Shown: positions 35,373-51,660, counted from the stretch's first letter. The stretch: 64,000 nt of DNA from Candidatus Aminicenantes bacterium (GCA_963702005.1 OY969696.1:2176001-2240000); one strand, 5' to 3'. Notes: a model not told the origin generated them from the sequence alone. Numbers and translations are program-made.

Positions 35373-36008
35373 TCAGACGAAGATTGTGGCCAGAGTGTAG
35401 ATTGCGAAACCGAAAAGCATCAGGGCCAGGCCGATGAAGATTCTCTTGAAGGTCTTGGGTTGGAACTGAAGATGGTGCTTGGCGACGAAGCGGATCAGCA
35501 TGAAGTACCAGAGTAGGCTCCCCAGCCCGCAGGCCACGGAGAAGACGATCGGGCGCCAGCCGCTGTTGGACATATGGGTCCAAGGGTGGGCGGTCGTCAT
35601 GCCGGCGACGCCGAGCCAGAAGATGTAGATGGTCGGGTTCGAGATGTAGAGAAGGATGACCCCCAGGATCGGCTTGGCGTTGAGGGGCGGGATGTCCTGC
35701 GGAGTCACGGGCCGAGTGAAGGTCTTGCCCTGGCGGTAGAGCCGGGTGCTGAGAATGATCAAGACGAAAGAGGCCAGCACTTTCATCGGGATGAGGTATT
35801 TCATCATCGGGTCCGTGATCTGGGAGATCCCGATGAGGGCGATCAGGCAGTAGGCGGCGTCGAGAACGGATGTCGTCAGACCGCCGGAGATGCCGTGGAT
35901 GAAGCCTCTCTTCAGCGTCTGAGAGATGACATAGACATTGACAGGACCGAGCGGGATGGCGGCCAGGAAGCCGACGGCCAGTCCCACGATAATGATAATC
36001 CCCGCCAC
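35373..36008 (-). CDS. LysE family translocator
   Basis: AIPLGPVN, RGFIHG, SNPT. Confidence 0.85.
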   Translation of the reverse strand: MAGIIIIVGLAVGFLAAIPLGPVNVYVISQTLKRGFIHGISGGLTTSVLDAAYCLIALIGISQITDPMMKYLIPMKVLASFVLIILSTRLYRQGKTFTRPVTPQDIPPLNAKPILGVILLYISNPTIYIFWLGVAGMTTAHPWTHMSNSGWRPIVFSVACGLGSLLWYFMLIRFVAKHHLQFQPKTFKRIFIGLALMLFGFAIYTLATIFV

Positions 36009-36040
36009 GCGGTTTTAACTCCTTGATCGAGAGAAAACAT

Positions 36041-36069
36041 TTTATAGCAGAAGCGGACGCCGCTGTCAA
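36041..36069 (-). promoter_or_regulatory. Sigma-70 promoter for the LysE gene
   Basis: Minus strand TTGACA-17 bp-TATAAA. Confidence 0.65.
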
Positions 36070-36144
36070 TTTGATAGATCAATCCCCTGCGCGGGAAGAG
36101 AGCGACGGGGAGAATAACGCCGCAGAGCAAGCCGCGTACTCGGG

Positions 36145-36726
36145 TCACAAGTGAAACGAAGTCCCCAGCCCGAGGCCGAACCTCCATCCTCCGAGATCGA
36201 CTTCGATGTCGAAGGGTTTGACCTTGAGCGGAATGTAGTGGGCTTCGATGAATCCGAACAGACCGGCCGCCAGCTTCGCCCGCACGCCCGCGCCGAAGAG
36301 GAGTGAGGTTTTCCGCCCCTTGGCCTGCAAGGAAAGGGGAAACGAGCTTTCGATCGTCTGCCTGTAAGAGAGGCCCGCGAGTCCGGCTTTGATGTAGGGA
36401 GCCCAGCGTCGGTCCAAGATCTTCCAAAGGGCGAATGCCTCCCAGCCTCGGACGGAAAGGTCGGTCTTTTCCTTGTAGAGGCCGATTTCCCCGGAACGGC
36501 AGTAGCCGAACTCGTAGCCCAGGGCGAGCGACAGGCCGTCCAGGACGCGCACGCCCAGGAAAGGGGCGGCCGCGTAGCCATTCCCGTAGACCTCTCGGAT
36601 CTGGCGGCTCCCCACGGTCCGAAAGGCGCCGAAAAGCGCGAGATCTAAGCTCAGGGGTTCGGCGCAAGAGACGAGAAGAAAGGTCAGCAGGATAAAGCCA
36701 AACCCAAGAAATTTCAATCCCCTCAT
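36145..36726 (-). CDS. Outer membrane beta-barrel protein
   Basis: Signal peptide, alternating beta strands, PYIKAG, C-terminal aromatic. Confidence 0.7.
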   Translation of the reverse strand: MRGLKFLGFGFILLTFLLVSCAEPLSLDLALFGAFRTVGSRQIREVYGNGYAAAPFLGVRVLDGLSLALGYEFGYCRSGEIGLYKEKTDLSVRGWEAFALWKILDRRWAPYIKAGLAGLSYRQTIESSFPLSLQAKGRKTSLLFGAGVRAKLAAGLFGFIEAHYIPLKVKPFDIEVDLGGWRFGLGLGTSFHL

Positions 36727-36762
36727 ATCCTTAGCGGACCGGAGCAGGGCGGCGCGCCCGCC

Positions 36763-37011
36763 CTACAACTTGGGAAGCGTCGAAGTGGGGGAGGGCTTTT
36801 TTTCTTCTTCCTGCTCGACCTCGAGGCCGAGGAGCTTGGCGGCGCCGTCAAAGATCATCTTGAGGGACTTCTTGGATTCCTGGAGCTCGGCCAGCCGCTC
36901 GCGGACCTTCAGGAGTTCCTTCTCAACCTGGGCGTCGATCCCGTCGAGCTGATGCTTGACCTCTTCCATGGTCTTTTTGTAAAGATCCTCTTGCTCCTTG
37001 TTTAGAGACAT
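36763..37011 (-). CDS. Small coiled-coil hypothetical protein
   Basis: AAGGAG RBS before MSLNKEQ; heptad-rich helix. Confidence 0.7.
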   Translation of the reverse strand: MSLNKEQEDLYKKTMEEVKHQLDGIDAQVEKELLKVRERLAELQESKKSLKMIFDGAAKLLGLEVEQEEEKKPSPTSTLPKL

Positions 37012-37033
37012 CGTGGGCTCCTTGGATTGTGAA

Positions 37034-38599
37034 TCACTTTCTGAAGACGATGTTGAACGGTTTCCAGACCTTGACCCGGGCTCCATCTTTGATGGCGGGT
37101 CTGAATTTCCACTGCCTCATGGATGTCTCGGCGGCTCGGTCGAAGCCGAAACTCCCCTTTATCCCCCTCAGGATGGTCGTTTGGGTGACATCTCCGCTTT
37201 CGGAGATCAGCGCGTTGACCGTCACGACGCCTTCGATGCCGATCCTTCGGGCCATCTCGGGATAGATCGGTTGGACCCTTTTGGTCTCGACCGGCTGAGT
37301 GTCAACCTGGTCCAGCGGAATAAGGTCGCCCTCCTGAGCCTTACGGACCACCGGCTGGGACGACTCGGCCAGAGCAGGTTCCGTCTTTTCCGGAGCCGCT
37401 TCCGCTGGCTGAGGCTGGTTCTGGATCTGGAGCGTGGGCGTCTGAGCCGGGAGGATGGGGGCCAGCGTGTCCGACGTCCTTCCCGGCTGGGGAGCGGCCG
37501 TCTGGCCTCTGGAGGACCCGGCCGGGGTCGCCTGGGGCTTGGCGGCCGGCTTGGACTCGGCAGCTTGGGGCTGGGTTTGCTGCTGGGAGCCGTTCGGATT
37601 GGACGCCGGCTGTTGAGCGGCGGCATTTGTTTCCGGCACGTTACCGGGGGGGTTCTCAGCGGGCGTTTGAATGCCGGACGGCGTCGCCTCAGTCTGCTGG
37701 GCCGTCTCGACCAGGCCGGTCTCGCTCTTCTTCGGCTTGAGGACGAACATGACGAGGAGCGCGATGACGACGAGGCCGGCGCCGATCCCGATGATGAGCC
37801 CCACCTTCGATTTCTTCTTCTCGGGTTCTTCAATATATCCACCGAACGGCACCGAACCGGGCCGCGCCTCGACGCGCTTTTCTTCATGCTCCCGGACAGC
37901 CGGGGGGACGGTTTCTTCGAGGGCGGGAGGCGTGAAGACGGGCATCTCCTTGGGCTTTTTGGCCTTTTCTTTGGGAAGCTCGGGCTTCTCTTCGTGGCCG
38001 CTCTTGAGACCAAAGTCGGCCAGGGCGCTTTGCAGGATCGTGTCGATTTCGGCCTCGACGTCGGTGGCCCCTTCGGGCGGCTCGACCTTGGCCGTCGAGT
38101 CCTTACCCCCGGGCATCAGCAGACCCCATTCTTCGCTGAAGTCCAGCGCCTTGTCCTTGGCCTGGGCCGGAGCCGGTTCGGCCGCTTCCGGTTCGGGCGG
38201 TGCGGCCTCCGCGGCCGGCTGTTTCTCTCCTTTAAGGAGGTCCCGGAAGACGGGCTGGAGATCTTCTTTTTTCCAGGGTTTCTCGAAAAAGGCGGAAGCC
38301 CCGTAGAACCGGATGGCTTCCGATTTGTAGACCGATTCCCGATAGATGCCGGTCACGATGATGACGGGCACTTTCTTGGCGGAGTCATAAGCGATCTTCT
38401 TGCAGAGCTCGAACCCATGGAGCTTGGGCAGCATGGCCTCCATGATGACGAGGTCGGGCCGTTCGGCCTTGAACTTCTCGAGGCCGGTGATTCCGTCGCT
38501 GGCGGTGACGACGTCGCAACCCTCGCTCTGCGCGAAATCGGACAGCGATTTTAAGGATTCCGCATCGTAATCGATGATCAGCACCTTTTTCTGGCTCAT
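37034..38599 (-). CDS. Response-regulator receiver + TM + TonB C-terminal fusion protein
   Basis: N-terminal receiver (VLIIDYD, LVIMEAMLP, EKP), acidic/Pro linker, TM, TonB_C (YPEMARRIGIEG..QWKFRPA). Confidence 0.85.
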   Translation of the reverse strand: MSQKKVLIIDYDAESLKSLSDFAQSEGCDVVTASDGITGLEKFKAERPDLVIMEAMLPKLHGFELCKKIAYDSAKKVPVIIVTGIYRESVYKSEAIRFYGASAFFEKPWKKEDLQPVFRDLLKGEKQPAAEAAPPEPEAAEPAPAQAKDKALDFSEEWGLLMPGGKDSTAKVEPPEGATDVEAEIDTILQSALADFGLKSGHEEKPELPKEKAKKPKEMPVFTPPALEETVPPAVREHEEKRVEARPGSVPFGGYIEEPEKKKSKVGLIIGIGAGLVVIALLVMFVLKPKKSETGLVETAQQTEATPSGIQTPAENPPGNVPETNAAAQQPASNPNGSQQQTQPQAAESKPAAKPQATPAGSSRGQTAAPQPGRTSDTLAPILPAQTPTLQIQNQPQPAEAAPEKTEPALAESSQPVVRKAQEGDLIPLDQVDTQPVETKRVQPIYPEMARRIGIEGVVTVNALISESGDVTQTTILRGIKGSFGFDRAAETSMRQWKFRPAIKDGARVKVWKPFNIVFRK

Positions 38600-38758
38600 G
38601 CGCTGCCCTTCCTTTATTCGAAATCCGGCTTTTCCCTCGCCGGGAGGGTTAGGGCCGAGGAGGTATCTGCCCGCAAGTCTATTTTCATCGAAGGCGGCTA
38701 AACGTCAATCACCCTTTGAGGTGATTCCCAGGATGAAATTCCCCTCTTGGGGGGGGTG

Positions 38759-40537
38759 TTAGGACCGTCCTCGCCGAAAGCGATGAAACGAGGAAGCGGA
38801 TTGGGGTGAGTGAGGGGTCTCGAACCCCCAACCTTTGTCTTTTCTGCTCCCCGGACGGGTGCCGGGGCCGAGAATGGGCCGGCCCGGGCGCGCGTCCGTG
38901 ATCTTTCCTCCGTCGACGACCAGCTCTCCGTTGACCGCTACATATTCGAAGCCCTGGCTATAGTGGTTAGGGTCGGCATAGGTTGAGCGCTCCTGAACCG
39001 TGTCGGGGTCAAAAGCTACGATGTCCGCCGCCATCCCCGGCCGCAGCAGGCCTCGGTCGCGAAGACGCATCCGAGAGGCTGGCAACGAAGTCATCTTGCG
39101 GACCGCCTCTTCGAGCGGGATCAGCTTGACCTCGCGCACGTAGTGGCCAAGGATGCGGGCGGTCGTCGCCCAGGCCCTCGGATGTGATTTCTCGCGGGAA
39201 AAAATTCCGTCCTCGGCCGAAGTCTCCGAGTCGGTGCACATGGAAACCAGCGGATGCCTGAGCGCCGCTCGCACGTCCTCCTCGCTCATTCCGAAGGTCA
39301 CGCGCATCGTGTTCCCGCGGTCGGCGAGCACGATGTCCATGACGGTGTCGAGAGGATCCTTACCTTCGTCCCGCGCGATCTCGGCGATCGTCTGGCCCTC
39401 ATATTTCTTGAGGTCAAGATTGAGGACGCTCGTGATGAGAATACGCGAGGCGCCCTCGGGCCAGTCGGGATTTTCCGCCAGGAATTCGCGTTTGGCACGG
39501 CCGCGCGTCGTCGGGTCGCGGAGTCGTGCCAGGAGCTGCTCGAGGCTCCCTTCCTGAAGCCATGAGGGTAGACTGTCCACGAGTCCATTCGAACTCGCCG
39601 TCCACGGATATTGGTCGGCGGAGACATCCAGGCCCTGCGCCCGCGCCTCCTCCAGCCTCCTGAGGACGGCAGGCATGAGGCCCCAGTTTTCCTTTCCGGA
39701 CGTTTTGAGGTGGTAGATCTCCGCTGGAATCGCCGCTTCACGTGCGATGCGGAACACCTCATCCAGGCTGGCGTCGATGCCGCCATTATTGTCGTTACCC
39801 TCGTCCCGCTGGTGTGTGATGTAGCTTCCACCGTAGGAAGCGGCGATGCGGGCGAGGGCGATGATCTCATCCGTCGAGGCGTAGCGGTCGGGCACGTAAA
39901 TGAGCGCAGTCGACAGCCCCAGGGCCCCTTCTTCCATGGCCCGGGCCACGGCCGCCTTCATGATCTCGAGCTCCTCCGGCCGGGCACGGCGGTTTTCTTT
40001 GCCGATGACGAGATTGCGGATGCCGCCGGCGCCCACAAATGTCCCCAAATTGACGGCGGACCGTGCCCGCATGAACGCTTCCCAGTAGCCGGCAAGCGTC
40101 GTCCAATCGGGAGTCAGCCCGTACCGGCTCCAGACATCCCGCCCTTCTTCGATCATCCGTTGGTTCAGCGGGCCGATCGACGAACCCTCGCCCGTGATCT
40201 CGGTCGTGATGCCCTGGGTGATCTTGCTCGCGACGCGATTATCGACAAGGATCCTGTATTCGGACTGCCCCATCATGTCAATGAATCCGGGGGCGATGAC
40301 GAGGTGCGAGGCGTCGATCCGGCGCCTGGCAGTGGCCTTGGCGAGATTCCCGATAGCGGCGATCCGGTCACCGACGACGCCGACGTCGGCCCGGAACCAG
40401 GGCGCGCCGGTCCCGTCGACCACGCGGCCGCCCGCGAAAATCAGATCATAGACGGGTCCCTGGCCAAGACAAAGGCCCGCCGTGAGAATGAGCCCGATGA
40501 CCGTTCCGCTAAAGATTCTTATTTTGGCAGCGCCCAA
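38759..40537 (-). CDS. N-acyl-D-amino-acid deacylase (amidohydrolase)
   Basis: VVDGTGAPW, APGFIDM, QGITTE, HPRAW, PGMAADIVAFD; likely TTG start at 40537 after GAGGAGG; C-terminus reads through the tRNA-His fragment. Confidence 0.88.
   Translation of the reverse strand: MGAAKIRIFSGTVIGLILTAGLCLGQGPVYDLIFAGGRVVDGTGAPWFRADVGVVGDRIAAIGNLAKATARRRIDASHLVIAPGFIDMMGQSEYRILVDNRVASKITQGITTEITGEGSSIGPLNQRMIEEGRDVWSRYGLTPDWTTLAGYWEAFMRARSAVNLGTFVGAGGIRNLVIGKENRRARPEELEIMKAAVARAMEEGALGLSTALIYVPDRYASTDEIIALARIAASYGGSYITHQRDEGNDNNGGIDASLDEVFRIAREAAIPAEIYHLKTSGKENWGLMPAVLRRLEEARAQGLDVSADQYPWTASSNGLVDSLPSWLQEGSLEQLLARLRDPTTRGRAKREFLAENPDWPEGASRILITSVLNLDLKKYEGQTIAEIARDEGKDPLDTVMDIVLADRGNTMRVTFGMSEEDVRAALRHPLVSMCTDSETSAEDGIFSREKSHPRAWATTARILGHYVREVKLIPLEEAVRKMTSLPASRMRLRDRGLLRPGMAADIVAFDPDTVQERSTYADPNHYSQGFEYVAVNGELVVDGGKITDARPGRPILGPGTRPGSRKDKGWGFETPHSPQSASSFHRFRRGRS
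38802..38835 (-). repeat. 34-bp copy of the tRNA-His 3' end (distal att site)
   Basis: tggggtgagtgaggggtctcgaacccccaacctt identical to 48851-48884. Confidence 0.92.
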
Positions 40538-40659
40538 TTCGCCCTCCTCTTCGGCACATCCAATGCCTGGGAATAACCCAGCCTCTTTCTCTAACCGGCA
40601 ACCTGCGGGTTTGGGTCGGGGTTCTCCTGATCCCACGCCGCTGAACCTGCGCCGCAGAA

Positions 40660-40689
40660 AGTATAGGTGCCGGCCTGGAGCGATGTCAA
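40660..40689 (-). promoter_or_regulatory. Sigma-70 promoter for the D-aminoacylase gene
   Basis: Minus strand TTGACA-18 bp-TATACT; supports the internal start. Confidence 0.55.
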
Positions 40690-40896
40690 CTTGACCTGCC
40701 TTTATAAGATTGGGCCGGATATGGAAGTGGTATAGAGCAAGAAATTCGGAACTTAGACCCATCCTTAAATCGGCCCCGATGCCTCGCTAGGTACTGCCCA
40801 TTGGTGGAGGGGCACTCAGGTCCCCTTCAGCCCGGCCAGCCACATCCTGGCATCTTCAGGCTCTGCCGTTTATCGAATGGGATTTCGTTTTGCCCT

Positions 40897-41211
40897 CTAG
40901 TGAGTTGAGCGCTCGACAATCGCTTCCACTACCTCCATTATGACGAGGAGGACGGCAATAAACCCAAAGACCACGGCCAATATCACGACGGGTGAGCGGT
41001 CCTTGAACTTAATTAAGCTTACGATCCCGGTAACGAAAGCGGCAATTCCGGATATCATCATGGATGTTCCCAGCATAATAAGGAGGGGGCTCCCGATTTT
41101 CATTCCTTTCAATCCCAATAAATTCCTCCTGTTAAGAACCGCAATAAGAAGCGCAACGAACACGGCCATCAATATGCCGGCCCATTTTCCGAGTTTTGTT
41201 TTCGGCATCAT
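40897..41211 (-). CDS. Small 3-TM membrane protein (cargo)
   Basis: MMPKTKLGKW then three hydrophobic helices; own TTGACT-17-TATCCT promoter at 41242-41270. Confidence 0.7.
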   Translation of the reverse strand: MMPKTKLGKWAGILMAVFVALLIAVLNRRNLLGLKGMKIGSPLLIMLGTSMMISGIAAFVTGIVSLIKFKDRSPVVILAVVFGFIAVLLVIMEVVEAIVERSTH

Positions 41212-41397
41212 TTTCCCCTTTCCCCTTTGTTTGCTGGTCAAAGGATAACGCCGTCGGGAAGGGAAGTCAATTAGTGGTGGCCTGTATGCTCAACGAGGCA
41301 TCACGCATACGAAGGCAGTCGGTCAGCACGGCACAATCAGCTGGGGGATGATGGGTCTGGCCTGCATAGGGGGCTTTCGGGGCTGCTGGACGCGGGC

Positions 41398-41522
41398 AGA
41401 CTCCGCCGCCGTGTCACACCGTTGTCACAAAAAGTGCTAAAACTCGTCTACTTCGGACTAAAGGTGCTTAAAAGGAAAACTTAGGAAACCTTAGATTATC
41501 AGGGAAAACGAGGGGATTAAGC
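41398..41522. repeat. att-arm-like element A (homologous to 43781-43905)
   Basis: agactccgcc, TGTCACA-N4-TGTCACA (41412-41429), ~10-bp periodic (C)TAA motifs, then tRNA fragment. Confidence 0.75.
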
Positions 41523-41565
41523 TGGCTGGGAAGCAAGGATTCGAACCTCCGACCTTTGGATCCGG
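41523..41565 (-). repeat. Chimeric tRNA 3' fragment (Arg-CCG anticodon/T-arm side + Gln-type acceptor end)
   Basis: Reverse complement ccggatccaaaggtcggaggttcgaatccttgcttcccagcca; 30 bp identical to 42130-42159. Confidence 0.8.
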
Positions 41566-41587
41566 GAGGGAGGCCGACGACCTATCC

Positions 41588-42046
41588 CTATTTCAGGATG
41601 TCCTCTTCCCCTCTCTGTGCCTTTGCCAATTGCAGGTACTTCTTCGCCGATATGATTGCCAGAATTGCGGCGATCAGGTTCGCTCCAATACAGACCAGCA
41701 TCAAGATCGCCTCTGCGCGGAATCCTTCATAGAACTGCAGAGAATAGACGGCAAGTTGGAACACCATGAAGTCATGTAGAAATAAGAGGAGCGCCCCAAG
41801 ATAAAGGGGGCCGCTGAGCATTCTGACGCCGCGCCGGCTCAGAATGACAACGGCCAGCAAAACAACGACCGCAACCAATTGGATTGCAAAAAATATCTTG
41901 GAAGAAGAATCGACGCGGTCGGCAATCGCCTCAGGATGCGCGGCCAGTCGAGGCACGAACAAGAGAGCCCACAAAGCGGCCACTCCGATTGCGATTGCGG
42001 TTGCGGTATAGACCATGCGCCGCGAAGTGGTTTCTTTGTCCATCAC
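41588..42046 (-). CDS. 4-TM membrane protein (cargo of the 594-bp unit)
   Basis: AAGGAGGT RBS, four hydrophobic helices. Confidence 0.72.
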   Translation of the reverse strand: MMDKETTSRRMVYTATAIAIGVAALWALLFVPRLAAHPEAIADRVDSSSKIFFAIQLVAVVVLLAVVILSRRGVRMLSGPLYLGALLLFLHDFMVFQLAVYSLQFYEGFRAEAILMLVCIGANLIAAILAIISAKKYLQLAKAQRGEEDILK

Positions 42047-42116
42047 AGATACCTCCTTCCAATGCTGATCACTAGTTTATATCAGAATGCTTGACAACAA
42101 AATAGGGGGGGGGATG

Positions 42117-42161
42117 TGGCGTGCCTGAGAGGATTCGAACCTCCGACCTTTGGATCCGGAG
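42117..42161 (-). repeat. 3' half of a tRNA-Arg(CCG) (att-like fragment)
   Basis: Reverse complement ctCCGga-tccaa-aggtc-ggaggTTCGAATcctct-caggcac-g-CCA; no 5' half present. Confidence 0.8.
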
Positions 42162-42204
42162 GCTCCCGGTGCTCTGGCACGAACGGGGATCCGGGCCCGG
42201 GCAT

Positions 42205-42483
42205 TCAGTTTGTCGGCTTGGTGTCCGGCAGGTCCTTGCCCGCTTTCTTCATGTATCTCCGGCCTTCCTCGTAGATGTCAAAATCCTCTTTCCTGTCCAG
42301 GCGCACCTTTTTCCTCTGTCCATCGTCGGTCTGGAAAATTACAAGATATGCGTGCTTGGAGAGAGTGCAGGTCTTCTTGGCCTCGACGGTCCCCGACCAT
42401 TCCTTGCGGCGATCCCTTTTTCTCCTAACCCAGGGTAAGAAAACGAGCCCGTCACCCAGGAGTTCAAGTATGAAATCAATCAT
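42205..42483 (-). CDS. Small hypothetical protein (cargo)
   Basis: AAGGAGG RBS; hydrophobic N-terminus, basic beta-rich C-terminus. Confidence 0.6.
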   Translation of the reverse strand: MIDFILELLGDGLVFLPWVRRKRDRRKEWSGTVEAKKTCTLSKHAYLVIFQTDDGQRKKVRLDRKEDFDIYEEGRRYMKKAGKDLPDTKPTN

Positions 42484-42560
42484 TTCGAACCCTCCTTCTC
42501 ATCCGCCCCTCACCAGTCTCGGGGCAGGGTCTCCGCCCGCCGGACCTACCTTCCCGTTGC

Positions 42561-43385
42561 TTATTTTAGCGTCAGCCCGATCCTCTTTTTATCTTTCGCC
42601 CAATAAATATAGAGCGCTTTGCCTTTTACATTGGCGAGAGGGAGAGTTCCCCAGTAGCGGCTGTCGTAGCTATTGTCGCGATTATCTCCGAGAACGAAAC
42701 AATGGCCAGCGGGCATCTTAAGCGGGCCGAAGTTGTCCCGGCTGTTGTCTATGACGATATCCTCGTGGACCTTGTATGATTCCTGGAGGGGTTCGTTACC
42801 GATAAAGACTTGCTTATTTTTTATTTCGACCGTTTCGCCTTCAAGAGCGATGACACGCATGAGAAATTGCTTTGTGGGATCTCGAGGATACTCGAAAACG
42901 ACTAAATCCCCCCGCTTAGGCGCCTGGTCGCTAAAGCCTTTTGGGTCCGTCATCAAGAAATCGTCTTTTTGAAGAGTCGGCATCATGGAGGCCGAAGGAA
43001 ACTTGTACGGTGAGACGCCTAGAGACGTCATCCAAATCCTTGCCGGAACGAAAATCTTCAAGCCGAGTGAAAGAATGATAAAGAACGCATAGACGAGAGG
43101 CGTTTGATATTTCCTAAGCCCCGTCTCCTTGGTCCGGCGCGCCTGGACAAAAGCGTGGATGATAGTGAACAACCAGAAAACAAAGACGGCTAGGACGAGC
43201 GCCATGAACCCGCTAAAATGGCGCGGCCAGCCGGCCAATCCCCAAAGAAAAGGTAGGGCGACAGAGAAGACAAAGAATATAATTCCAAGGACACCTTTCC
43301 CGTTATAGATCTGTCCGAGACCAGGAACGAGCAAAGACAGAAGGGCGGCGATGAACGGATTCCTTTTTTTCTTTTCGGCGGTCAT
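42561..43385 (-). CDS. Signal peptidase I paralogue with extra N-terminal TM domain (cargo)
   Basis: NPFIAALLSLLVPGLGQIYNG, PSASMMPTL, RGDLVVF, GDNRDNSYDSRYWG; the catalytic Lys position reads FLMRVI. Confidence 0.85.
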   Translation of the reverse strand: MTAEKKKRNPFIAALLSLLVPGLGQIYNGKGVLGIIFFVFSVALPFLWGLAGWPRHFSGFMALVLAVFVFWLFTIIHAFVQARRTKETGLRKYQTPLVYAFFIILSLGLKIFVPARIWMTSLGVSPYKFPSASMMPTLQKDDFLMTDPKGFSDQAPKRGDLVVFEYPRDPTKQFLMRVIALEGETVEIKNKQVFIGNEPLQESYKVHEDIVIDNSRDNFGPLKMPAGHCFVLGDNRDNSYDSRYWGTLPLANVKGKALYIYWAKDKKRIGLTLK

Positions 43386-43638
43386 GATTCCCTCCCTACG
43401 TTCGTTGATTTCTTGGTTTCTTTTCCCCCCGGGGACCCGCGAGCCCAGCTCATCGCAGCGTTCTCTATATCGCGCAGAAAGGAAAAGAAATTGACCTCTG
43501 GCACGGGATGGCTTTCCCTCCCATTAAGCCCGGGACCCCTCTCCCTCGGTACGAAAAGATGATATTCCCAAGCTTGATTCTATGTCAAGGACCAGTATGG
43601 AGAACGACTGAGTTATCATAAGTTCGGGGCCTTAAGAT

Positions 43639-43764
43639 TGACCTGCCACCCCTTAAACCGATCCAGGCATAATGAGAAAAACCTGGGAGAAAGGAGCCTT
43701 AATGGGCAGGGTATGGTTCACTCCGGAACAAATCATTGAAAAGCTCCGTGAGGCCGAAGTCCTC
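43639..43764 (+). mobile_element. Truncated IS3-family left end with orfA start
   Basis: TGACCTGCCACCCC end, AAGGAG RBS, ATG 43702 MGRVWFTPEQIIEKLREAEVL, then cut off. Confidence 0.7.
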
Positions 43765-43780
43765 AGATCTATCGAAATCT

Positions 43781-43905
43781 AGACTCCGCCCCATGTCACA
43801 AATATGTCACAGATTGTGCCTAAACTCGCTTAACTTAGCCTAACGGAACCTAAATAGGAAAAAGCCTAACTTTCTTATTCACCAGGGGAAAACAGGGAGA
43901 ACAGG
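43781..43905. repeat. att-arm-like element B (homologous to 41398-41522)
   Basis: agactccgcc, TGTCACA-N4-TGTCACA (43794-43811), periodic CTAA motifs. Confidence 0.75.
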
Positions 43906-43954
43906 TGGGGTGAGTGAGGGGTCTCGAACCCCCAACCTTCGGATCCACAGTCCG
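43906..43954 (-). repeat. 49-bp copy of the tRNA-His 3' end including the anticodon loop
   Basis: Identical to 48851-48899. Confidence 0.93.
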
Positions 43955-44456
43955 GGAAGTGCGCGCCCCATTCGGTTTTCAATCGACCGTGAACAAAAGG
44001 CTTCCCAGCCGGACGGGATCCTTCTCGTGCATCGCGGCACGCCGGTTGGATCTATTAAGTTATGATAAGGCTGGGAAAAGGAGGCAAGCCGTGAAGCGGA
44101 AAGGCGTCGTCTTCCTAGCTTCCTTCGATTTGTTGTTCATAGTGCTGAGTGTCTTGCTCTACGGGTCTTTCGCTCCCGCCGATCAAGTCGGCTCGCTGCT
44201 GGTAACAAACAACAGCGACCTGGTCAACAGGGATACGTCCAGCCCGGACACGCTGGTCGCCAACCCGGGGCCCGACGGCATCTCACTCCGGGAGGACATG
44301 CTCGCGGCCGCGGGCGCTACGACATCCCTCGCAATTAGCTTCACCCCGTCTTTGAGGGTGGACTGACCCCCAAAAATTGAACCACCCCGAGTGCTAAATA
44401 TTAGGATGCTATAATAGACATCATCAGCCGGGAGAAGGCCTTTAAAGGAGGCTCTG

Positions 44457-44768
44457 ATGGTGTCCGAGAAACACGGCAAACGGTACACGGCGCGGTTCAA
44501 GTTCCAGGTGGTGATGGAAATCTTAAGCGGGGCCAAGGCCATCGGACAGATCGCGCGGTCCTATGGCGTTCATCCGGTGACTCTCAGCCATTGGAAGAAA
44601 GAGTTCATCGAAAAAGGGCCGGAGATCTTCTCCCAGCACACCACGATCCAGGAGTACGAGAAACGGATCGAGGACTTGGAACGGTTAATCGGCCATAAAG
44701 AAGTGGAGATCGCGCTCCTAAAAAATTTCATGGCCGGGAGCTCACCCCGGGGGAAAAAGTTGAGCTGA
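44457..44768 (+). CDS. IS3 transposase OrfA
   Basis: HTH (IGQIARSYGVHPVTLSHWKK) plus leucine zipper; A6 slippery site at ~44720. Confidence 0.88.
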   Translation: MVSEKHGKRYTARFKFQVVMEILSGAKAIGQIARSYGVHPVTLSHWKKEFIEKGPEIFSQHTTIQEYEKRIEDLERLIGHKEVEIALLKNFMAGSSPRGKKLS

Positions 44769-44806
44769 CGCGGGCGTTTAAGGACGACTATGGGCTGAAC
44801 AGAGTC

Positions 44807-45637
44807 TTGGCGGCTCTGGGGCTTTCGAAAGGGACTTGGCATTATGCCCAGACGAGACCGAGTTATGAAGAGAAGCATGTCGGGCTGAGGAAACCGTTGC
44901 TCGAGATTGCCAGAACCCATCCGGAATACGGATACCGGAGGACGAGTGCCGAGCTCCGGGATCGAGGAATCCAGGTCAATCGGAAAGTCGTGGCGCGTCT
45001 GCATGGGACCTGGGATTTAGCCGTGATTCGACGGGTGAGGAAGCCGAAAACAAGCTCCCTGGCAAAGCTTCTTAAAGACACCGGGTCTAAGATCAATCTC
45101 GTGGCCGGCCTGACCGAGATCGATGATTTTGAGGTCGTCTATACGGATTTTACGGAGCTGCTCTACCGGAGAGGCCGGGCGAAAGCCCAGCTGATGCCGT
45201 TCGTGGATCATTCGAGCAAACTCGTTTTAGGCCACGCCCTGGGAGAGGCGGATAATACGGAGTTGGCCCTGGACGCCTGGCGCAAGGCGAAGACGACGCT
45301 CCGAAGATACGGACGGACAACGGAAGGGCTGATCGTTCATCATGATCAGGATGGTGTTTATTTAGGCCATGGCTGGCTCCGTGAGCTTGCCGTCCAGGAT
45401 AAAGTGCGCGTTTCCTATTCGGAAAACGGGGCCAAGGGCAACGTCCACATGGAGTCGTTCAATTCCCGATTCAAAGCCGAGAATCGGCTGTTGTTTTGGG
45501 AACAGGAAGATCTCCCTTCATTGAAAAAGGTTGTCGGGCAGCGGATCCGGTACTATAATCACGTTCGTCGACACTCGGCGTTGGGTTACCAATCGCCGAT
45601 TCGATATCTCAAAGAAAAGGGCCGAAGACCCGGCTGA
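44807..45637 (+). CDS. IS3 transposase OrfB (DDE), probably fused to OrfA by -1 frameshift
   Basis: YGYRR, TDFT, HHDQDG, ESFN, YN..RRHSALGY.SP. Confidence 0.9.
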   Translation: MAALGLSKGTWHYAQTRPSYEEKHVGLRKPLLEIARTHPEYGYRRTSAELRDRGIQVNRKVVARLHGTWDLAVIRRVRKPKTSSLAKLLKDTGSKINLVAGLTEIDDFEVVYTDFTELLYRRGRAKAQLMPFVDHSSKLVLGHALGEADNTELALDAWRKAKTTLRRYGRTTEGLIVHHDQDGVYLGHGWLRELAVQDKVRVSYSENGAKGNVHMESFNSRFKAENRLLFWEQEDLPSLKKVVGQRIRYYNHVRRHSALGYQSPIRYLKEKGRRPG

Positions 45638-45909
45638 GATGTTAGCGGAATTTAGCCCTCTAAGTGGTTCGAAAAATGGGGGTCATGTCCGGGCCCCAAG
45701 ATCTCAATCTCAGATAGGCTGCCGCGCATCACGGGGGGCAGCTTGAAGATCACGGGCGACATTAACGCCGACGGCACGTCGGACATCTCGCTCGACGGCG
45801 GGAAGAAAGCCGCGGAAGCGAATTCTAAGGATCTTTCAGAATCCAAACATCTCCCACTATCACCAACATGTCGCAAATTCGGTTGAAAAGCGCGTAAACT
45901 ACGTCATTG

Positions 45910-46030
45910 AAATCGATGCCTCTTTCGACGAGTTGGGCTGCAAACGTGTGCCGTAGGTCATGAAATCGAAGGCCCCTGATCCCAGCTCTACGTGTGGTTG
46001 CGTTGAAAGCCGTCTTGACATCAAGGGGCC
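45910..46030 (-). pseudogene. Tyrosine integrase remnant (box II region)
   Basis: [39 protein letters not shown]; no N-terminus and no catalytic Tyr region. Confidence 0.85.
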
Positions 46031-46043
46031 GCGGTTCTATCCT
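46015..46043 (+). promoter_or_regulatory. Sigma-70 promoter for the kinase gene
   Basis: TTGACA-17 bp-TATCCT, 28 bp before ATG 46072. Confidence 0.65.
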
Positions 46044-46071
46044 CTGGGCAGACAAGGACTGGGATGGGCGC

Positions 46072-48750
46072 ATGATCGGCCAGCTCGTTTCCCACTACCG
46101 GATCCTGGAGAAGCTCGGCGGCGGAGGCATGGGCGTCGTCTACAAGGCCGAAGACACCAGGCTCAAGCGCGCGGTCGCCCTGAAGTTCCTGCCCGAGGAG
46201 TCGCTCCAAGAGCCGCACGCCCTGGAGCGCTTCGAGCGGGAGGCCCAGGCCGCATCGGCCCTGAACCACCCGGGGATCTGCACCATTTTCGATATCGACC
46301 AACACCAGGGACGCCATTTCATCGCCATGGAGCTACTCGAGGGCCGGACCCTGAAGCGGCGCATCCTCGGCCAGCCGGTCCCGGCCGACGAGATCATCAA
46401 TCTAGCTATCCAGATCGCCGACGCCCTCGACGCCGCCCACGGCAAGGGCATCATCCATCGGGACATCAAGCCGGACAACATCTTCGTCACCGATCGCGGC
46501 CTAGCCAAGATCCTCGATTTCGGCCTGGCCAAAACGATGCCGCGAGAAACGGCTGCCGCGGGCTCGGCCGGCCCGACCGTCACCGCCCCGGAGCCGCTGA
46601 CCGGAGCCGGCGCGGCGGTCGGGACGGTGGCTTATATGTCCCCGGAGCAGGCCCGGGGCGAGCCGCTTGATGCCCGCACCGATCTTTTTTCCTTAGGCGT
46701 CGTGCTCTACGAAATGGCGACAGGTCGGCAGGCCTTTACTGGCTCCACCTCGGCCGTCATCTTCGACGCCATCCTTCATAAAGCCCCGACATCTCCCGTC
46801 CGGCTGAACCCGGATGTCCCGCCCGAGCTGGAGCGGATCATCAACAAGGCCCTGGAGAAAGAACGGCGGTTGCGCTACCAGAGCGCGGCCGAGATCCGGG
46901 CCGATCTCGAGCGGCTGAAACGGGATTCCACCTCGGCGCGCATAGCCGCCTTTGAAGACCAAGCGGCGCCATCGGCAGGCCCCATCGCCTCGGGGCGTAA
47001 GAGACGCCGATGGATCCCTTGGGCCGCGGGGGCAGTCGCCGTGCTCGTCTTAGCCGCGGCCGGCATGCTTCTCCTAATGGGGCATAAAAAGCCCTCCGAA
47101 ACAGCCGTTCCCCAAGTGGCCAACGCTGTCAAAGTGACCACCGCCATGGGTGCCAAGGACTGCCCAAGCTGGTCTCCGGACGGCCGCATGCTGGTCTACC
47201 AGTCCGACCAAGCAGGGAACTGGGACATCTGGGTCACCCAGGTCGGGACGAGCCAGGCCGTCAACCGGACGGCCGACAGCCCGGCCAACGAGATGAATCC
47301 CACCTGGTCGCCGGATGGTCAGTGGATCGCCTTCTTTTCGGACCGGACCGAACGCGGCTACTACGTCATGCCCGGGATCGGCGGCAAGGCCCATCGGATC
47401 GCCTCTTTGGAGTTTGCCGATGCCTATCCGACGGCGGCCCAATGGTCTCCGGACAGTACTCATCTGGCCTATGCCCTGCGCCAGCGCGTCGAACCCTACA
47501 TCGAGATCCTGACCGTGGCCAGTGGCCAATCCAAGAGGCTGACGCTTCCGAACCGGGCCCGCAACAATTCCATCATCGACATGAGCTGGTCGCCCGACGG
47601 GCGCTGGCTCGCCTATGCCCGGGCCATTAGCCCCATCGCAGCGACCGCCGAACTGTGGCTGACGCACACGACCGACGAGAAGAGCTTCCAGCTGACCGAC
47701 GGGACCTTGAGGGATACCAGCCCGACCTGGTCTCCGGACGGCCGCGAGCTCTATTTCATCTCCAATCGCGGCGGGACGCCTGACCTCTGGCGGTTCGCGA
47801 TTGGCGGCCAGGGACTGCCGGAGGGGCCGCCGCGGCAGATCACGGCCGGCATCGAGATGACCCATGCCGTCATAGCCCCGGGCGGACGGACGTTGGCCTA
47901 TTCCAAAGGCCGGACGGTCCGCAACGCGTTCCGGGCCCCCCTCCCGGCGGGCCGGCCGATCACCTGGACGGACGCCACCCAGCTGACCTTCGACGAAGCG
48001 GAGATCGAGTCCGTCGAAGTCTCAAAGGACGGACGGATCCTGGTCAGCTCGGACAGATCGGGAAACTGGGACATCTACCTGCTGTCCCCGGACTCGGGCG
48101 ATCTGCAACAACTGACGACCGATCCGGGAGTGGATGCGGGCCCGCGCTGGAAGCCCGACGGCAGCGAGATCGCGTTCTACTCGTCGAGAACGGGCCATCG
48201 GGAAATATGGCTCATGCCCGTGGGCGGCGGCCCGGCGCGGCAACTCACCCACGGCGAGGTCGAGAGTTTCAACCCGGCTTGGTCCCCCGACGGGAAGTCC
48301 ATCACCATGGAGAGCGGGGGCATTTTGATCCTCGACCCTCAAAGCCTCAAGGTGAGGAACTTAACCGACAAAGAAACCAATTGCCACCCGGACTGGTCCC
48401 CTGACGGGCGCTGGGTGGCCTTCAGTGAAAAGGGCAACCAAGGGTGGCAGATTTTTCGCATCGCAGCCTCCGGTGGGCTGGTCGAGCAGCTGACACGAGG
48501 AGGAGGCTGGACGCCCCGTTGGTCCCCCGACGGGAAGCGGATCTACATGATCGGCACCGGAAGCCGGAGGAATGCCATCTGGGCCCTATCACTCGAGAGC
48601 CGGGAGGAATGGCCGGTGACAGCATTGACCGGCCGGCGCGGCGCGCTGGGATATAACGGCCTAGCCGTCGACGGCCGGTTCCTCTATTTCACCTGGGAAG
48701 AGGTGCGCAGCGACATCTGGGTCGCCGATATCGTCCGGCCGGTGAAGTGA
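46072..48750 (+). CDS. Ser/Thr protein kinase with TM and TolB-like PD40 beta-propeller repeats (cargo)
   Basis: [28 protein letters not shown]; TM helix; repeated P.WSPDG. Confidence 0.93.
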
Positions 48751-48850
48751 CCGCCTGTCCGTTTTTCTTAACAAGAGTTCAATTAATCCAAAATGATTTG
48801 TATAAGGAGATTCTCTTATCAGGCTAACTGATTGAATATTGAGGGAACAG

Positions 48851-48928
48851 TGGGGTGAGTGAGGGGTCTCGAACCCCCAACCTTCGGATCCACAGTCCGA
48901 TGCTCTAACCAATTGAGCTACACTCACC
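48851..48928 (-). tRNA. tRNA-His(GTG)
   Basis: GGTGAGTGTAGCTCAATTGGTTAGAGCATCGGACTGTGGATCCGAAGGTTGGGGGTTCGAGACCCCTCACTCACCCCA: cloverleaf, G-1, encoded CCA. Confidence 0.96.
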
Positions 48929-49074
48929 GTCCCTTCGGAGGCGTATGATTTTCTCATCTCGTCGCCCCATTGTCAATACTGGCTCCAACTCGTTTTATAT
49001 CAATCAATTATGGTAAATTTCGGCCTCCCAAAAAAGGCTTAATACCCAAGTCCGGAAGGGCCGGCCCGGCTTGA

Positions 49075-49989
49075 CTATCGTTTCTGGCCCTCGATGAGGT
49101 CGAGGACGTCGGCCGAATCGCGCCAGCGGGGCCGGACCTTGACCTGGAGGTCGAGATAGATCCGGGTCTTGAGGATGTCCTCGATCTCCCGGCGGGCCTC
49201 GCTCCCGATCGCTTTGAGAAGCTGGGCGTGGCGGCCGATGACGATTTTGCGTTGGGAGTCCTTTTCGACGAGGATGCTTGCTTGGAGGTAGATGACGGGC
49301 GGGCGGGGGGCTTGTCCTTCCGGCGTCTCGGCGCTGCGTTCCTCGATCTGCTCGAGGAGGACGGCCGTCACGAAAGGCAGCTCCTGTTCGACGCGCGCGA
49401 GGAGTTTCTCGCGGATGATTTCGGCCAAGAAGAACCGTTGAGACTGGTCTGTGATCTCGTCGGCTGCATAAAGCCGGTCCGCTTCGGGGAGAGCGTGGTA
49501 GAGGCAGTCCTCGAGCCGGTCGAGGTTGATCCCCTTGAGGGCCGAGATGGGGATGATCTCCTTGAAGGCCAGGAGGTCCTTGTAGCGGTCGATGAGGGGG
49601 AGGAGCTTGTCTTTCCGGATCAGGTCGACCTTGTTGAGGAGGAGGAATAGGGGCTTGGAGACGTCCTTGAGGATCTCCAGGGCGTAGGCGTCCCCGTGGC
49701 CGAAAGGCTGGGCGGCGTCGACGAGAAGGCAGACCAGGTCCGCCGTCTGGAGGGAGGTGAAGACAAAGTTCATCATCCGGCGGTTGAGGCCGTGCAGGGG
49801 TTTGTGGATGCCGGGGTTGTCGATGAAGACGATCTGTCCCCGGTCGCCGGTCTTGATGCCCAGGATGCTGATGCGGGTCGTCTGGGGTTTATCCGAGACG
49901 ATGGCGACCTTGCGGCCCAGGATCCGGTTGAGGAGGGTCGACTTTCCCGCGTTGGGCCGGCCGACCAGGGCGACGGTCCCCGAGTTCAT
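49075..49989 (-). CDS. era: GTPase Era
   Basis: GRPNAGKST, KPQTTR, NKVD, KH domain. Confidence 0.96.
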   Translation of the reverse strand: MNSGTVALVGRPNAGKSTLLNRILGRKVAIVSDKPQTTRISILGIKTGDRGQIVFIDNPGIHKPLHGLNRRMMNFVFTSLQTADLVCLLVDAAQPFGHGDAYALEILKDVSKPLFLLLNKVDLIRKDKLLPLIDRYKDLLAFKEIIPISALKGINLDRLEDCLYHALPEADRLYAADEITDQSQRFFLAEIIREKLLARVEQELPFVTAVLLEQIEERSAETPEGQAPRPPVIYLQASILVEKDSQRKIVIGRHAQLLKAIGSEARREIEDILKTRIYLDLQVKVRPRWRDSADVLDLIEGQKR

Positions 49990-51245
49990 GGGCGGGACCC
50001 GTCCTGCCCCCCGGCCGACTCCCGGACCCGGAGTTTCTTGACGCGTTTGGGATCGACATCGAGGACCTCGAAGCTGAGGCCCTTGATAACAACCGTCTCG
50101 CCCTTGCGGGGGAGCCGGCCCAGGTGGTGGGTGACGAGGCCGCCTGCGGTGAGGAAGTCGTCCTCGGCCAGATCGCGCTCGAAGCGGTCCTCGAGCTCCT
50201 CGACTTCGACCTCGCCGGAGAGGGTGAAGTCCCGAGGCCCGTTCTCGACGATCCGGGGCTCCTCGAGGTCATACTCGTCCTGGATCTCGCCGACGATCTC
50301 CTCGACGAGGTCCTCCATGGTCACCAGCCCCGACACCCCGCCGTGCTCGTCGACGACGATGGCCAGCTTGACCTTGGCCCGCTTAAATTCCTTGAGGAGG
50401 GCCGAGACCTCCATGGATTCGGGAACGAAAATAACGGGACGGAGCAGGCCCTCGATGGGCAGGTTTTTATGCGAGGGGTCGGCGTATTCGAGGAGATCCT
50501 TGGCGATGACGATGCCTTCGATGTTGTCGATGCGATCCTTGTAGACGGGAATCCGCGAATACTGCTCCTTGATGATGAGCTCGCGGAGCCGTCCGATCGT
50601 CGTGTCCTTCCGGATGCAGACCATCTTGACCCGGGGCGTCATGATCTCCCGGACGAGCGTGCCGCCGAACTCGACGACGCCGCGCAGGAGACCCTCTTCC
50701 TCTTTTTCGATGATGCCTTCTTCCTGGGCCTCGTCGAGGAAGGTCTCGATGGCATCCTCGGTCGCCGCCTCGCGCGGCTCGTCCGCCTCCACCTTTTCCT
50801 CCTCCCCCCGCTCCTGGAGGCGGCGGGAAAGGAAGGTCAAGGGCGAGCTCAGGGCGAGGAGGGGGCCGAGGACGGGAAGGATCGATCCCAGGAGGCGGCC
50901 CCGGCTCAGGGCGTTGATGAGGCGGGGAACGTATTCAAAAATAAGGAGATAGCCGGCCAGGGCGGTCAGCATCGGGCCCGCCGGCCAGAACCGGCCGCGC
51001 CGGAAGACGAAGAATAATAAAAGGCCCGAAGCCAGGATGGACAGGATACGCAGAATCTCGACCGCGATCCGGAGATCGTCGAAGCGGTCGATCATCCGCT
51101 GGCGGAATTCCTTTTTCCGGTCCTCGAGGATTCCGCTGAAAGCGATCTTGGAGATCGCGTTCAGGGAGACATGGAGGAGGGACAGGAGGAAGGCGGCCAA
51201 CCCGCATACGGCCAATCCCATTCCGGCCAGCCAGGCAGCCCTCAT
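49986..51245 (-). CDS. HlyC/CorC family CBS-domain transporter
   Basis: TM domain, VREIMTPR, SRIPVY, VDEHGG..TMEDLVEEIVGEI. Confidence 0.9.
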   Translation of the reverse strand: MRAAWLAGMGLAVCGLAAFLLSLLHVSLNAISKIAFSGILEDRKKEFRQRMIDRFDDLRIAVEILRILSILASGLLLFFVFRRGRFWPAGPMLTALAGYLLIFEYVPRLINALSRGRLLGSILPVLGPLLALSSPLTFLSRRLQERGEEEKVEADEPREAATEDAIETFLDEAQEEGIIEKEEEGLLRGVVEFGGTLVREIMTPRVKMVCIRKDTTIGRLRELIIKEQYSRIPVYKDRIDNIEGIVIAKDLLEYADPSHKNLPIEGLLRPVIFVPESMEVSALLKEFKRAKVKLAIVVDEHGGVSGLVTMEDLVEEIVGEIQDEYDLEEPRIVENGPRDFTLSGEVEVEELEDRFERDLAEDDFLTAGGLVTHHLGRLPRKGETVVIKGLSFEVLDVDPKRVKKLRVRESAGGQDGSRP

Positions 51246-51246
51246 C

Positions 51247-51660
51247 TCAGGCTCCCAGGAACCGCCGCCGGGCCTTGGCTTCCTCGGCCTCCATCCCCCG
51301 GAAGTGTTTGAATCCCAGCAGGTGAAGGAAGCCGTGGATGACGAGGATCCGCAGCTCCCGGTCCAAGCCGTGGCCTTTGGCGGCGGCTTGGACGGCGGCG
51401 CGGGGGACGGAGATGATGACATCGCCCAGGAAGTAGCGGCCGTCGGGTCCCCGCGTCCCGATCGGAAAGCTTAGGACATCGGTCGGCCTGTCCTTGCCCC
51501 GGAATTCGCGGTTGAGCTGCCGGATGCGCCGGTCGTCGACGAAGGCCAGGACGATATCGGGATCCTGAAGGCGGTAGCGGCGGACGAGCCCGGACACCAG
51601 GTCCCGGAAGGCTCGGACCCGGAGGCGGGCCTTGCGCTGAAGGTTAATGACTTCGATCAT
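51247..51660 (-). CDS. ybeY: rRNA maturation RNase YbeY
   Basis: PTDVLSFP, LGDVIIS, HGFLHLLGFKH. Confidence 0.93.
   Translation of the reverse strand: MIEVINLQRKARLRVRAFRDLVSGLVRRYRLQDPDIVLAFVDDRRIRQLNREFRGKDRPTDVLSFPIGTRGPDGRYFLGDVIISVPRAAVQAAAKGHGLDRELRILVIHGFLHLLGFKHFRGMEAEEAKARRRFLGA

Follow-up and report, generated by a model that had tools for sequence, protein, structure and literature searches.

How does a bacterial tRNA gene come to be followed by a row of tRNA 3′ ends that derive from several tRNAs and stand one or two genes apart? We addressed this question for a locus of Candidatus Aminicenantes bacterium (GCA_963702005.1; 4.31 Mb in a single contig, 60.4% GC) in a stretch of 64,000 nucleotides (OY969696.1:2176001-2240000). 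This stretch is called the window, and positions are counted from its first letter unless assigned to the genome. An earlier note on this DNA had described four tRNA 3′ fragments downstream of an intact tRNA-His gene and had proposed an integron-like platform for gene capture, with tRNA-derived attachment (att) sites served by an integrase in trans. The fragments are real, and we arrive at a different explanation: the region 38802-48850 is probably the product of tandem accretion and decay of elements which carried their own integrases, and resembles cis-mobilizable elements (CIMEs) rather than integrons.

The tRNA-His gene and the four co-oriented fragments were confirmed by ARAGORN, Rfam, repeat finding and BLAST against the 52 tRNAs of the genome (Table 1), and the spacings of 4945, 1789, 594 and 2721 bp reported for the units are correct. 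Direct repeats of the 3′ part of tRNA-His (49 and 34 nt, 100% identical) stand at the borders, as in genomic islands. We read the intact gene as the integration target on the attL side, and the outermost, 34-nt copy marks the end of the array. The fragment previously labelled Arg-CCG is of Arg(CCG) type but not the host's own. It is 92% identical to the host tRNA-Arg(CCG), while its last 44 nt agree at 44 of 44 positions with a tRNA-Arg(CCG) gene that is intact in a different genome of the order (L071), and it appears to be foreign, from the tRNA-Arg(CCG) of another lineage. The remaining fragment is a chimera: its 5′ 30 nt equal 42130-42159 of the Arg fragment, it ends in 26 nt identical to those at the 3′ terminus of the host tRNA-Gln(CTG), and the two parts are joined in the T-loop. 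The same chimera is present in the congener G001. GC content is about 52% across 40.5–46 kb, compared with 60% genome-wide.

A further component of the array, which the earlier note missed together with the IS3 element, is a conserved motif of about 90 nt. It consists of four phased 10-bp repeats of the type ATTARGC, followed by two TGTKACA repeats one helical turn apart. Besides two copies 3′ of fragments there is a partial one, 74% identical to a copy at genome 1793969-1794065 and fused to the remnant of a tyrosine integrase. The remnant, which had also been overlooked, lacks the region of the catalytic Tyr, and its best match among the integrases of the genome is that at 3091053-3092114 (44% by tblastn). 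We read it as the distal end of unit X1, and the remnant and partial motif together as a cryptic fifth junction from which the tRNA fragment and a third of the motif have been deleted. In tRNA orientation the array runs from tRNA-His through unit X1 (kinase, integrase remnant) to the buried junction, then through unit X2 (partial motif, a gene cut by IS3) to the 49-nt His fragment and its motif, the signal peptidase and DUF7489 genes, the Arg fragment, the 152-residue membrane protein, the Arg/Gln chimera and its motif, the 114-residue membrane protein, the amidohydrolase, the 34-nt His fragment and the conserved flank. It comprises at least five former elements or pieces.

The motif accompanies tRNA ends throughout the genome and the order. 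The genome holds 8–9 copies, each co-oriented with a tRNA gene or fragment and about 40–60 nt 3′ of it; upstream partners are tRNA-Asp, tRNA-Glu(CTC), tRNA-Arg(TCG) and fragments of tRNA-His and tRNA-Glu. A motif model matched 98 of 151 genomes of the same order (Aminicenantes according to their record titles; this genome counted) with up to 20 copies per genome, and the matches often form arrays, 0.15–5 kb apart. A search of about 186,000 species genomes with an exact pattern gave 39 stretches, of which at least 21 bear Aminicenantes or Acidobacteriota in their titles; viral contigs, where a free element was sought, gave no match. At 29 foreign loci, 26 of 38 motif copies adjoin an intact tRNA (15), a co-oriented fragment (seven) or an inverted fragment (four); the intact tRNAs are those for Asp, Ala, Glu, Arg, Thr, Lys, Leu and Phe. 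No conserved gene was found behind the motif, as 206 open reading frames (ORFs) from 30 loci yielded one cluster of three. The element family is widespread in Aminicenantes, and our searches for papers on Aminicenantes integrases and on tRNA T-loop integration showed no description of it.

An intact relative, L119, reveals the architecture to which the motif belongs. Here tRNA-Arg(CCT) is followed by the motif, about 10 kb of cargo (a UvrD-like helicase, NUDIX and helix–turn–helix proteins), a 457-residue integrase with HTH_17, SAM-like and PF00589 catalytic domains, and a repetition of the T-arm; attL, integrase and attR are all in place. The motif contains a TGTGACG pair, and so does the 3′ part of the integrase coding sequence, about 55 nt before the tRNA fragment. 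Integrase genes of this genome have a like layout with other repeat words: words of GTGGCACA type belong to the integrase that ends the island at tRNA-Arg(ACG), TTTGGGCACA to the integrase next to tRNA-Val and GTGACACA to that at 3091053-3092114, whose stop codon is followed after about 190 nt by a GTGACAC pair. The attP of lambda type has repeat pairs on both sides of the core. Because the repeat pair recurs in the integrase 3′ end, we infer that the motif is a lambda-like P′ arm and its repeats are putative arm-type integrase sites. Relative to the integrase the core can point either way (L116, L121), and this explains why some fragments are flanked by motif pairs facing outward (L060, L120). 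In the window, the 200 nt upstream of each of the four fragments contain no arm-type repeat pair, so that complete attL/attR pairs appear to be lacking.

Two other identities of the motif were considered and rejected. With respect to an RNA, there was no Rfam match in 36000-52000 at E-values up to 1, and an alignment of 11 copies showed five invariant pairs and no covariation. A Tn7-like end or a dif-like Xer site was dismissed in view of the length of the tRNA repeats (34–49 nt), the direct and not inverted motif repeats, the presence of the repeat pair in integrase 3′ ends and the fact that the transposase gene of the IS3 element is the only one identified in the array.

We then compared the locus with its relatives. 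The pair of era and tRNA-His is retained in all six other genomes of the order that were fetched. In G001 (Era protein 95% identical, core DNA 83–89.5%), tRNA-His is followed by a motif and unrelated genes; in G002 the left flank is conserved up to 38575, and the contig ends at this flank. The available genomes of the genus are in fragments. The content at tRNA-His thus differs between the relatives examined, in line with the earlier view of the fragments as att footprints, and in neither congener does any sequence match the array region at the identity level of the core. In G023 the era–tRNA-His pair is accompanied by a motif as well as two T-arm fragments resembling tRNA-His, in G019 by two motifs.

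Part of the array does occur elsewhere. The segment 41395-43954 (2.56 kb, three units), which begins with the His fragment, extends through motif 2 and includes three fragment types, is 95.7% identical to contig C192 of G001, compared with 83–89.5% for the core, where it lies between a 5′ fragment of tRNA-Leu(CAA) and the intact tRNA-Leu(CAA) gene. Its location at another tRNA indicates a travelling composite, in which the internal fragments are fossils. The homology begins at tRNA-His position 27–29 and ends in motif 2 near 41435. These data also bear on the notion that the fragments are chance look-alikes or local duplications of tRNA pseudogenes among native genes. The core-like GC content (63–65%) of the kinase and amidohydrolase genes and the many kinase paralogues would agree with it, but the perfect identity of the His fragments over 34 and 49 nt, the missing core-level counterpart in the congeners and the block at another tRNA in G001 make it very improbable.

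Among the public sequencing runs listed, none contains more than 0.23 of the sampled words. Four runs were compared as Logan contigs, a form of data in which starts, circles and rare forms are not visible; stretches without contig cover were given no weight. Contigs of wetland and sediment runs cover parts of 41659-43935 at about 98–99% identity. Two joints, 43811>41440 (uniting halves of two motifs) and 41270>42116, were seen in the runs X1 and X2; they are ambiguous and no evidence for circles, and may represent other arrangements in related strains.

We kept 80 metagenome loci encoding relatives of the signal peptidase. The signal-peptidase/DUF7489 pair is present in at least 31 of them. 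It directly follows intact tRNA-Thr(CGT) in L139, lies 740 nt after tRNA-Arg(CCG) in L154 and follows tRNA-Leu(CAA) plus motif in L153; it also occurs 3.7 kb beyond era–tRNA-His (L178), behind an integrase and a His fragment (L179), and, in units of 1.4–2.7 kb, with an Arg-type fragment on either side. In seven loci a conserved stretch of about 98 nt joins DUF7489 to the next fragment, an anticodon arm of Arg(CCG) type. The acceptor end of that fragment is of Arg(CCG), Thr(CGT) or another Arg type, and the switch, which results in Arg/Thr and Arg/Arg chimeras, lies in the T-loop. L149 and L150 share 2829 nt at 99.6% identity between flanks that are unrelated on both sides; the common stretch starts at a GAGCAC-type repeat pair before a Thr fragment and ends inside the T-loop. 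Together with the block in G001, this agrees with the earlier expectation that breakpoints of reassortment fall at the fragments: block edges lie at a fragment edge or inside the T-loop. As the chimeras break in the T-loop, they point to crossovers at this position which would let elements integrate into non-cognate tRNA sequences, displaced fragments included.

Mixed arrays are also found elsewhere in this genome. Not counting the tRNA genes themselves, it has at least 28 fragments of tRNAs, many of them away from the cognate gene. As examples, His and Arg(TCG) pieces occur in an array at tRNA-Glu, and Asp and Arg(TCG) pieces beside tRNA-Lys. The earlier note had suggested a search for similar arrays at tRNA-Arg(CCG) and tRNA-Gln and for an intact tyrosine integrase. 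Mixed arrays exist in the genome and in the order, but none was found in this genome at tRNA-Arg(CCG) or at either tRNA-Gln. Of 12 PF00589 matches in the genome, the remnant in the window is the only one beside a motif; an integrase that could act in trans is available as a candidate at 3091053-3092114. Apart from the remnant, the array has no integrase of its own.

On this basis, the following course of events would account for the locus. At least five integrative elements or composite pieces would have been inserted one after another by tyrosine integrases crossing over inside the tRNA, and would then have decayed. The attP of the family would be lambda-like, with an arm-type pair in the 3′ end of the integrase gene, a tRNA-derived core and the P′ arm of about 90 nt with its TGTKACA pair. 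Each insertion would regenerate the tRNA, push the older units outward and leave a displaced 3′ fragment. Some crossovers would take place in the T-loop, so that a newcomer could land in a displaced fragment or a non-cognate tRNA. Since the T-loop is common to nearly all tRNAs, such landings would produce the chimera and the mixture of fragments from tRNA-His, tRNA-Arg and tRNA-Gln. Blocks formed by accretion could later travel as passengers of larger composites, which would explain the foreign Arg fragment. The integrase modules would have been lost here except for one remnant, with IS3 cutting unit X2, leaving promoter-bearing envelope cargo and orphan att remnants. The sequences themselves show the anatomy of the array, the spread of the family, an intact element, the chimeras and the transfer of a block, while the place of the crossover, a binding role for the repeats and the succession of events are inferred from them.

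Several findings weigh against this explanation. L119 is the sole intact element that was examined in detail, and no unit of the window has a complete integrase. Three units (594–2721 bp) are smaller than an integrase-bearing element could be, so that decay must have removed much, and repeatedly. As to the native neighbour of tRNA-His, the response-regulator/TonB_C gene that adjoins the 34-nt fragment stands 9–15 kb away from the tRNA gene in three other genomes, and no fragment was seen in the interval. Across the order, the majority of motif copies are orphans. None of 30 loci has an integrase within 1.5 kb of the motif, and only 15 of 88 motif matches in five genomes are within 20 kb of a PF00589 match by manual count; G106 has 11 motifs and just two Xer-like matches plus a short one, and no large island-type integrase. 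Lastly, the signal-peptidase/DUF7489 pair recurs without integrase in units of 1.4–2.7 kb, between tRNA fragments and beside five kinds of tRNA, which resembles cassettes more than random debris.

The small integrase-less units might themselves be mobile and be shuffled in trans by the integrases of related elements, the tRNA loci then being open capture arrays. We consider this possible but doubtful. The orphan motifs and the recurrence of the pair beside several tRNAs, with its stretch of about 98 nt, speak for it, as does the fact that integrase-less units bounded by co-oriented fragments are found in metagenome loci (2051 bp in L155 and L156; 1423 bp in L148; 810 and 831 bp in L166; 2674, 1396 and 2709 bp in L150), only one of the 80 loci having any integrase match. 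The same holds for the near-identical two-unit blocks in different flanks with a breakpoint in the T-loop, and for cargo-free arrays, in which fragment, motif, fragment and motif follow each other within 150–350 nt (L069, L052). A trans-acting enzyme could be the integrase at 3091053-3092114, with its GTGACAC pair and its similarity to the remnant. Yet the four fragments of the window have no arm-type pair within 200 nt upstream, the block in G001 moved as three units jointly and not singly, and the junction between DUF7489 and a membrane gene at genome 4020 is not at a tRNA fragment. Fresh insertions of integrase-bearing elements into internal fragments would yield like changes of the flanks, and there is no evidence for circles in the contigs, where both joints are ambiguous. 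With similar reserve we advance the tentative idea that the tRNA 3′ core and the 90-nt arm form a portable att end, with which integrase-less, promoter-bearing units could be captured at any T-loop and re-mobilized in trans, maintaining open arrays without a resident integrase.

Some breakpoints are found in the motif and not in the tRNA, a further point against accretion by crossover inside the tRNA. In three mosaics the break is close to the centre of the motif or falls in the TGTKACA pair: one between G000 and G001, one in which the genome copy 1793952-1794042 was compared with the copy at tRNA-His of G001 and motif copy 1 of the window, and a hybrid contig in the runs X1 and X2. They may reflect either a second crossover site or homologous exchange; for statistics on breakpoints at the motif centre, 71 distinct copies provided 28 close pairs only. 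Homologous recombination between motif copies or tRNA fragments could on this evidence cause most of the reshuffling, making the arrays passive hot spots. The breakpoints do lie in stretches identical between copies (a run of 22 nt in three motif copies, the T-loop word), and homology with G001 fades gradually through motif 2. We regard such a dominant role as unlikely, because the identical stretches measure just 12–22 nt and the fragment edges are sharp and located at tRNA positions typical of integrase cores (27–29, 44, T-loop). Integrase action, moreover, classically yields direct repeats of the 3′ parts of tRNAs (PMC4383910). Accretion and decay of integrase-borne elements therefore remains the explanation that we prefer.

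The features of the locus are listed in Table 1. Gene families were assigned by Pfam over all ORFs of the units.

Table 1. Features of the tRNA-His array and its flanks (window positions, listed from the tRNA outward after the upstream gene).
Feature	Position	Strand	Evidence and remarks
Era GTPase	49075-49989		Upstream of tRNA-His
Intact tRNA-His(GTG)	48851-48927	minus	ARAGORN and Rfam; sole tRNA found in the window
Ser/Thr kinase with PD40 beta-propeller, cargo of unit X1	46072-48750	plus	Pkinase 3.8e-46, PD40 4.3e-68
Tyrosine-integrase remnant, 40 residues	45888-46025	minus	PF00589, E 2.8e-8; box II region with HDLRHT
Partial motif copy	45840-45901	minus	Profile positions 28-89, nhmmer E 3.6e-5; fused to integrase remnant
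IS3-family element	44364-45685	plus	orfA 44457-44768, orfB 44807-45637; HTH_Tnp_1, rve, rve_3
tRNA-His 3′ fragment, 49 nt	43906-43954	minus	100%, E 1e-24, tRNA positions 29-77
Motif copy 1	43772-43862	minus	3′ of 49-nt His fragment; TGTGACA repeat pair
Accessory signal peptidase I (S26)	42561-43385	minus	Peptidase_S26, Pfam 5.7e-39
Small DUF7489 protein	42205-42483	minus	Pfam
Arg(CCG)-type tRNA 3′ fragment	42117-42163	minus	92% to host tRNA-Arg(CCG)
Multi-pass membrane protein, 152 residues	41588-42046	minus	No Pfam family; sole gene of the 594-bp unit
Chimeric Arg/Gln fragment	41523-41570	minus	Arg(CCG)-type 5′ part joined in T-loop to Gln(CTG) end
Motif copy 2	41394-41480	minus	3′ of Arg/Gln chimera
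Membrane protein, 114 residues	40897-41241	minus	Weak DUF6688 match; promoter-like site 41270-41242
Amidohydro_3 amidohydrolase, D-aminoacylase-like	38759-40762	minus	Pfam 4.1e-23
Outermost tRNA-His 3′ fragment, 34 nt	38802-38835	minus	100%, E 8e-16, tRNA positions 44-77
Response-regulator/TonB_C gene	37034-38599		Next gene beyond 34-nt His fragment

The cargo labels proposed before largely hold by Pfam (Pkinase plus PD40, Peptidase_S26, Amidohydro_3 and small membrane proteins), as does the description of the units as small and integrase-less: among the unit ORFs Pfam detected no complete integrase and no conjugation or mobilization genes. Within the array a tyrosine integrase is represented by the remnant only. 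Promoters had also been claimed, and 12 promoter-like sites were found compared with 3.6 ± 2.2 in shuffled sequences, counted as consensus matches only; such sites precede the signal peptidase (43588-43559), the 114-residue protein, the amidohydrolase and the kinase.

The kinase-PD40 ORF is open from 45994 with a likely start at 46072 and has a GC content of about 65%; G001 contains merely 66–68% matches. Over 15 paralogues of its kinase domain (46070-46870) occur in the genome, with a DNA identity of 63–73%, and homologues lie near tRNA-His in G023 and G028 as well as beside signal-peptidase units in several metagenome loci. The IS3 element has 36-nt inverted ends of the form TG...CA and the features of the IS3 family; no target duplication was seen in the flanking sequence and no second copy in the genome. 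In unit X2 it splits a gene fragment on the plus strand whose start is near 44091. The signal peptidase has a 48% paralogue elsewhere in the genome, and the 152-residue membrane protein has a 60% paralogue at genome 4019-4450 which adjoins Arg fragments. The real start of the amidohydrolase is probably near 40510. Its domain is complete at residue 616 of 667, and the tail of the ORF reads through the 34-nt His fragment.

The signal-peptidase gene is preceded by a stretch of about 170 nt (within 43386-43600, minus strand), located behind a TTGACA/TATCAT promoter-like site, which is conserved before homologues in at least seven metagenome loci. It has no Rfam match and a weak fold (−7.6 kcal/mol; six of 23 pairs with a double change), and may be a regulatory leader. 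At genome 3545-4581, with no tRNA gene near, two Arg(CCG)-type fragments flank a 95% copy of DUF7489, fused to a truncated 60% homologue of the 152-residue membrane gene. A circular permutation of these two modules, which would have hinted at circles, was considered and rejected, since the junction at genome 4020 is a plain fusion in the gene end.

Other tRNA-derived sequences were noted outside the window. The 5′ half of tRNA-Arg(TCG) (positions 1–41) is present six times in arrays, at genome 1792570, 2367913, 3081669, 3146361, 3150276 and 3153648. In G000 and G001 the intact tRNA-Leu(CAA) gene is preceded by 5′ fragments of this tRNA, and behind each of them stands a second conserved arm of about 180 nt (C192 7158-7339 of G001 is 88% identical to G000 3081454-3081635). 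These sequences suggest a second type of element, one that would duplicate 5′ parts of tRNAs. Directly downstream of tRNA-Val(CAC) an intact integrase gene is convergent to it (genome 89457-90711), and three Val 3′ fragments are found 78–88 kb off (167430-177200); together they may delimit an island of very large size whose ends are in tandem. The 93-nt ‘tRNA-Gln(ttg)’ which ARAGORN reports at 4520-4612 of L021, inside era of G001, is very likely a false call, and dubious long ‘tRNA’ calls occur in G000, for example at 4292938 and 3717067.

While tandem tRNA islands are textbook knowledge, the mixed arrays of several tRNAs, the T-loop chimeras and the single-gene units extend the familiar pattern, as does a single nucleotide-conserved arm that accompanies many tRNA cores across an uncultured order. 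The data provide an att architecture and a candidate integrase type, with an N-terminal HTH_17 domain, for a phylum-level group on whose mobile elements our searches showed no paper. Promiscuous crossover in the T-loop, into displaced fragments, offers a possible mechanism for the formation of mixed arrays of envelope genes. If small units should prove mobile in trans, the arrays would constitute a second natural route to cassette arrays besides integrons.

Integrons contain small, mostly co-oriented single-gene units without recombinase, separated by recombination sites. The array is similar in that small co-oriented units without recombinase lie between remnants of sites. Unlike in integrons, no intI adjoins the array, with one remnant nearby among the 12 PF00589 matches of the genome. 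There is no attI and no hairpin attC: the borders are tRNA 3′ fragments, and the motif is without conserved pairing. The units are not promoterless but have promoter-like sites of their own, and integrases are borne by the elements, as in L119. Together with the absence of arm-type pairs, this argues against the integron-like platform originally proposed.

Paired direct repeats on both sides of the core, and an extra N-terminal DNA-binding domain (HTH_17) on the integrase, are shared with lambda. As in mycobacteriophage Ms6, for which PMC1762012 describes a core in the tRNA T-loop and retargeting to other tRNAs by core changes, the crossover would lie in the T-loop. Unlike in lambda and Ms6, the putative P′ arm is nucleotide-conserved across the order while the cores differ, and the core occurs in either orientation.

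Among tandem islands at tRNA and tmRNA genes, such as those treated in the Islander paper (PMC4383910), the ssrA islands of Dehalococcoides offer a comparison. According to PMC3146451, these strain-specific islands likewise have a regenerated target, bounding direct repeats of its 3′ end and extra conserved flanking nucleotides; integration genes are absent in some of them, which the authors suggest to be cis-mobilizable. In the Dehalococcoides system all repeats derive from ssrA alone (20 bp), the integrase is a serine recombinase, and a six-gene integration module is retained in 16 islands. The system described here involves several tRNAs and chimeras, units down to 594 bp and a tyrosine integrase, and nearly all modules have been lost.

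A parallel in the course of events is provided by the CIMEs related to ICESt1 and ICESt3. According to PMC5704250, CIMEs keep a working attL and attR by definition; in the present array the P′-arm motif follows two fragments, and the distal junctions show no arm repeats within 200 nt upstream. The same review describes integration, decay that retains att sites without an integrase and the entry of a newcomer into an att site, and in agreement with this Pfam detected no integration or transfer genes among all ORFs of the units. Composites can move as a whole there (PMC5704250), as the 2.56-kb block suggests for the array. As far as these texts go, the three-step CIME scheme (PMC5704250) and the ssrA precedent (PMC3146451) cover the data, and accretion followed by decay is preferred.

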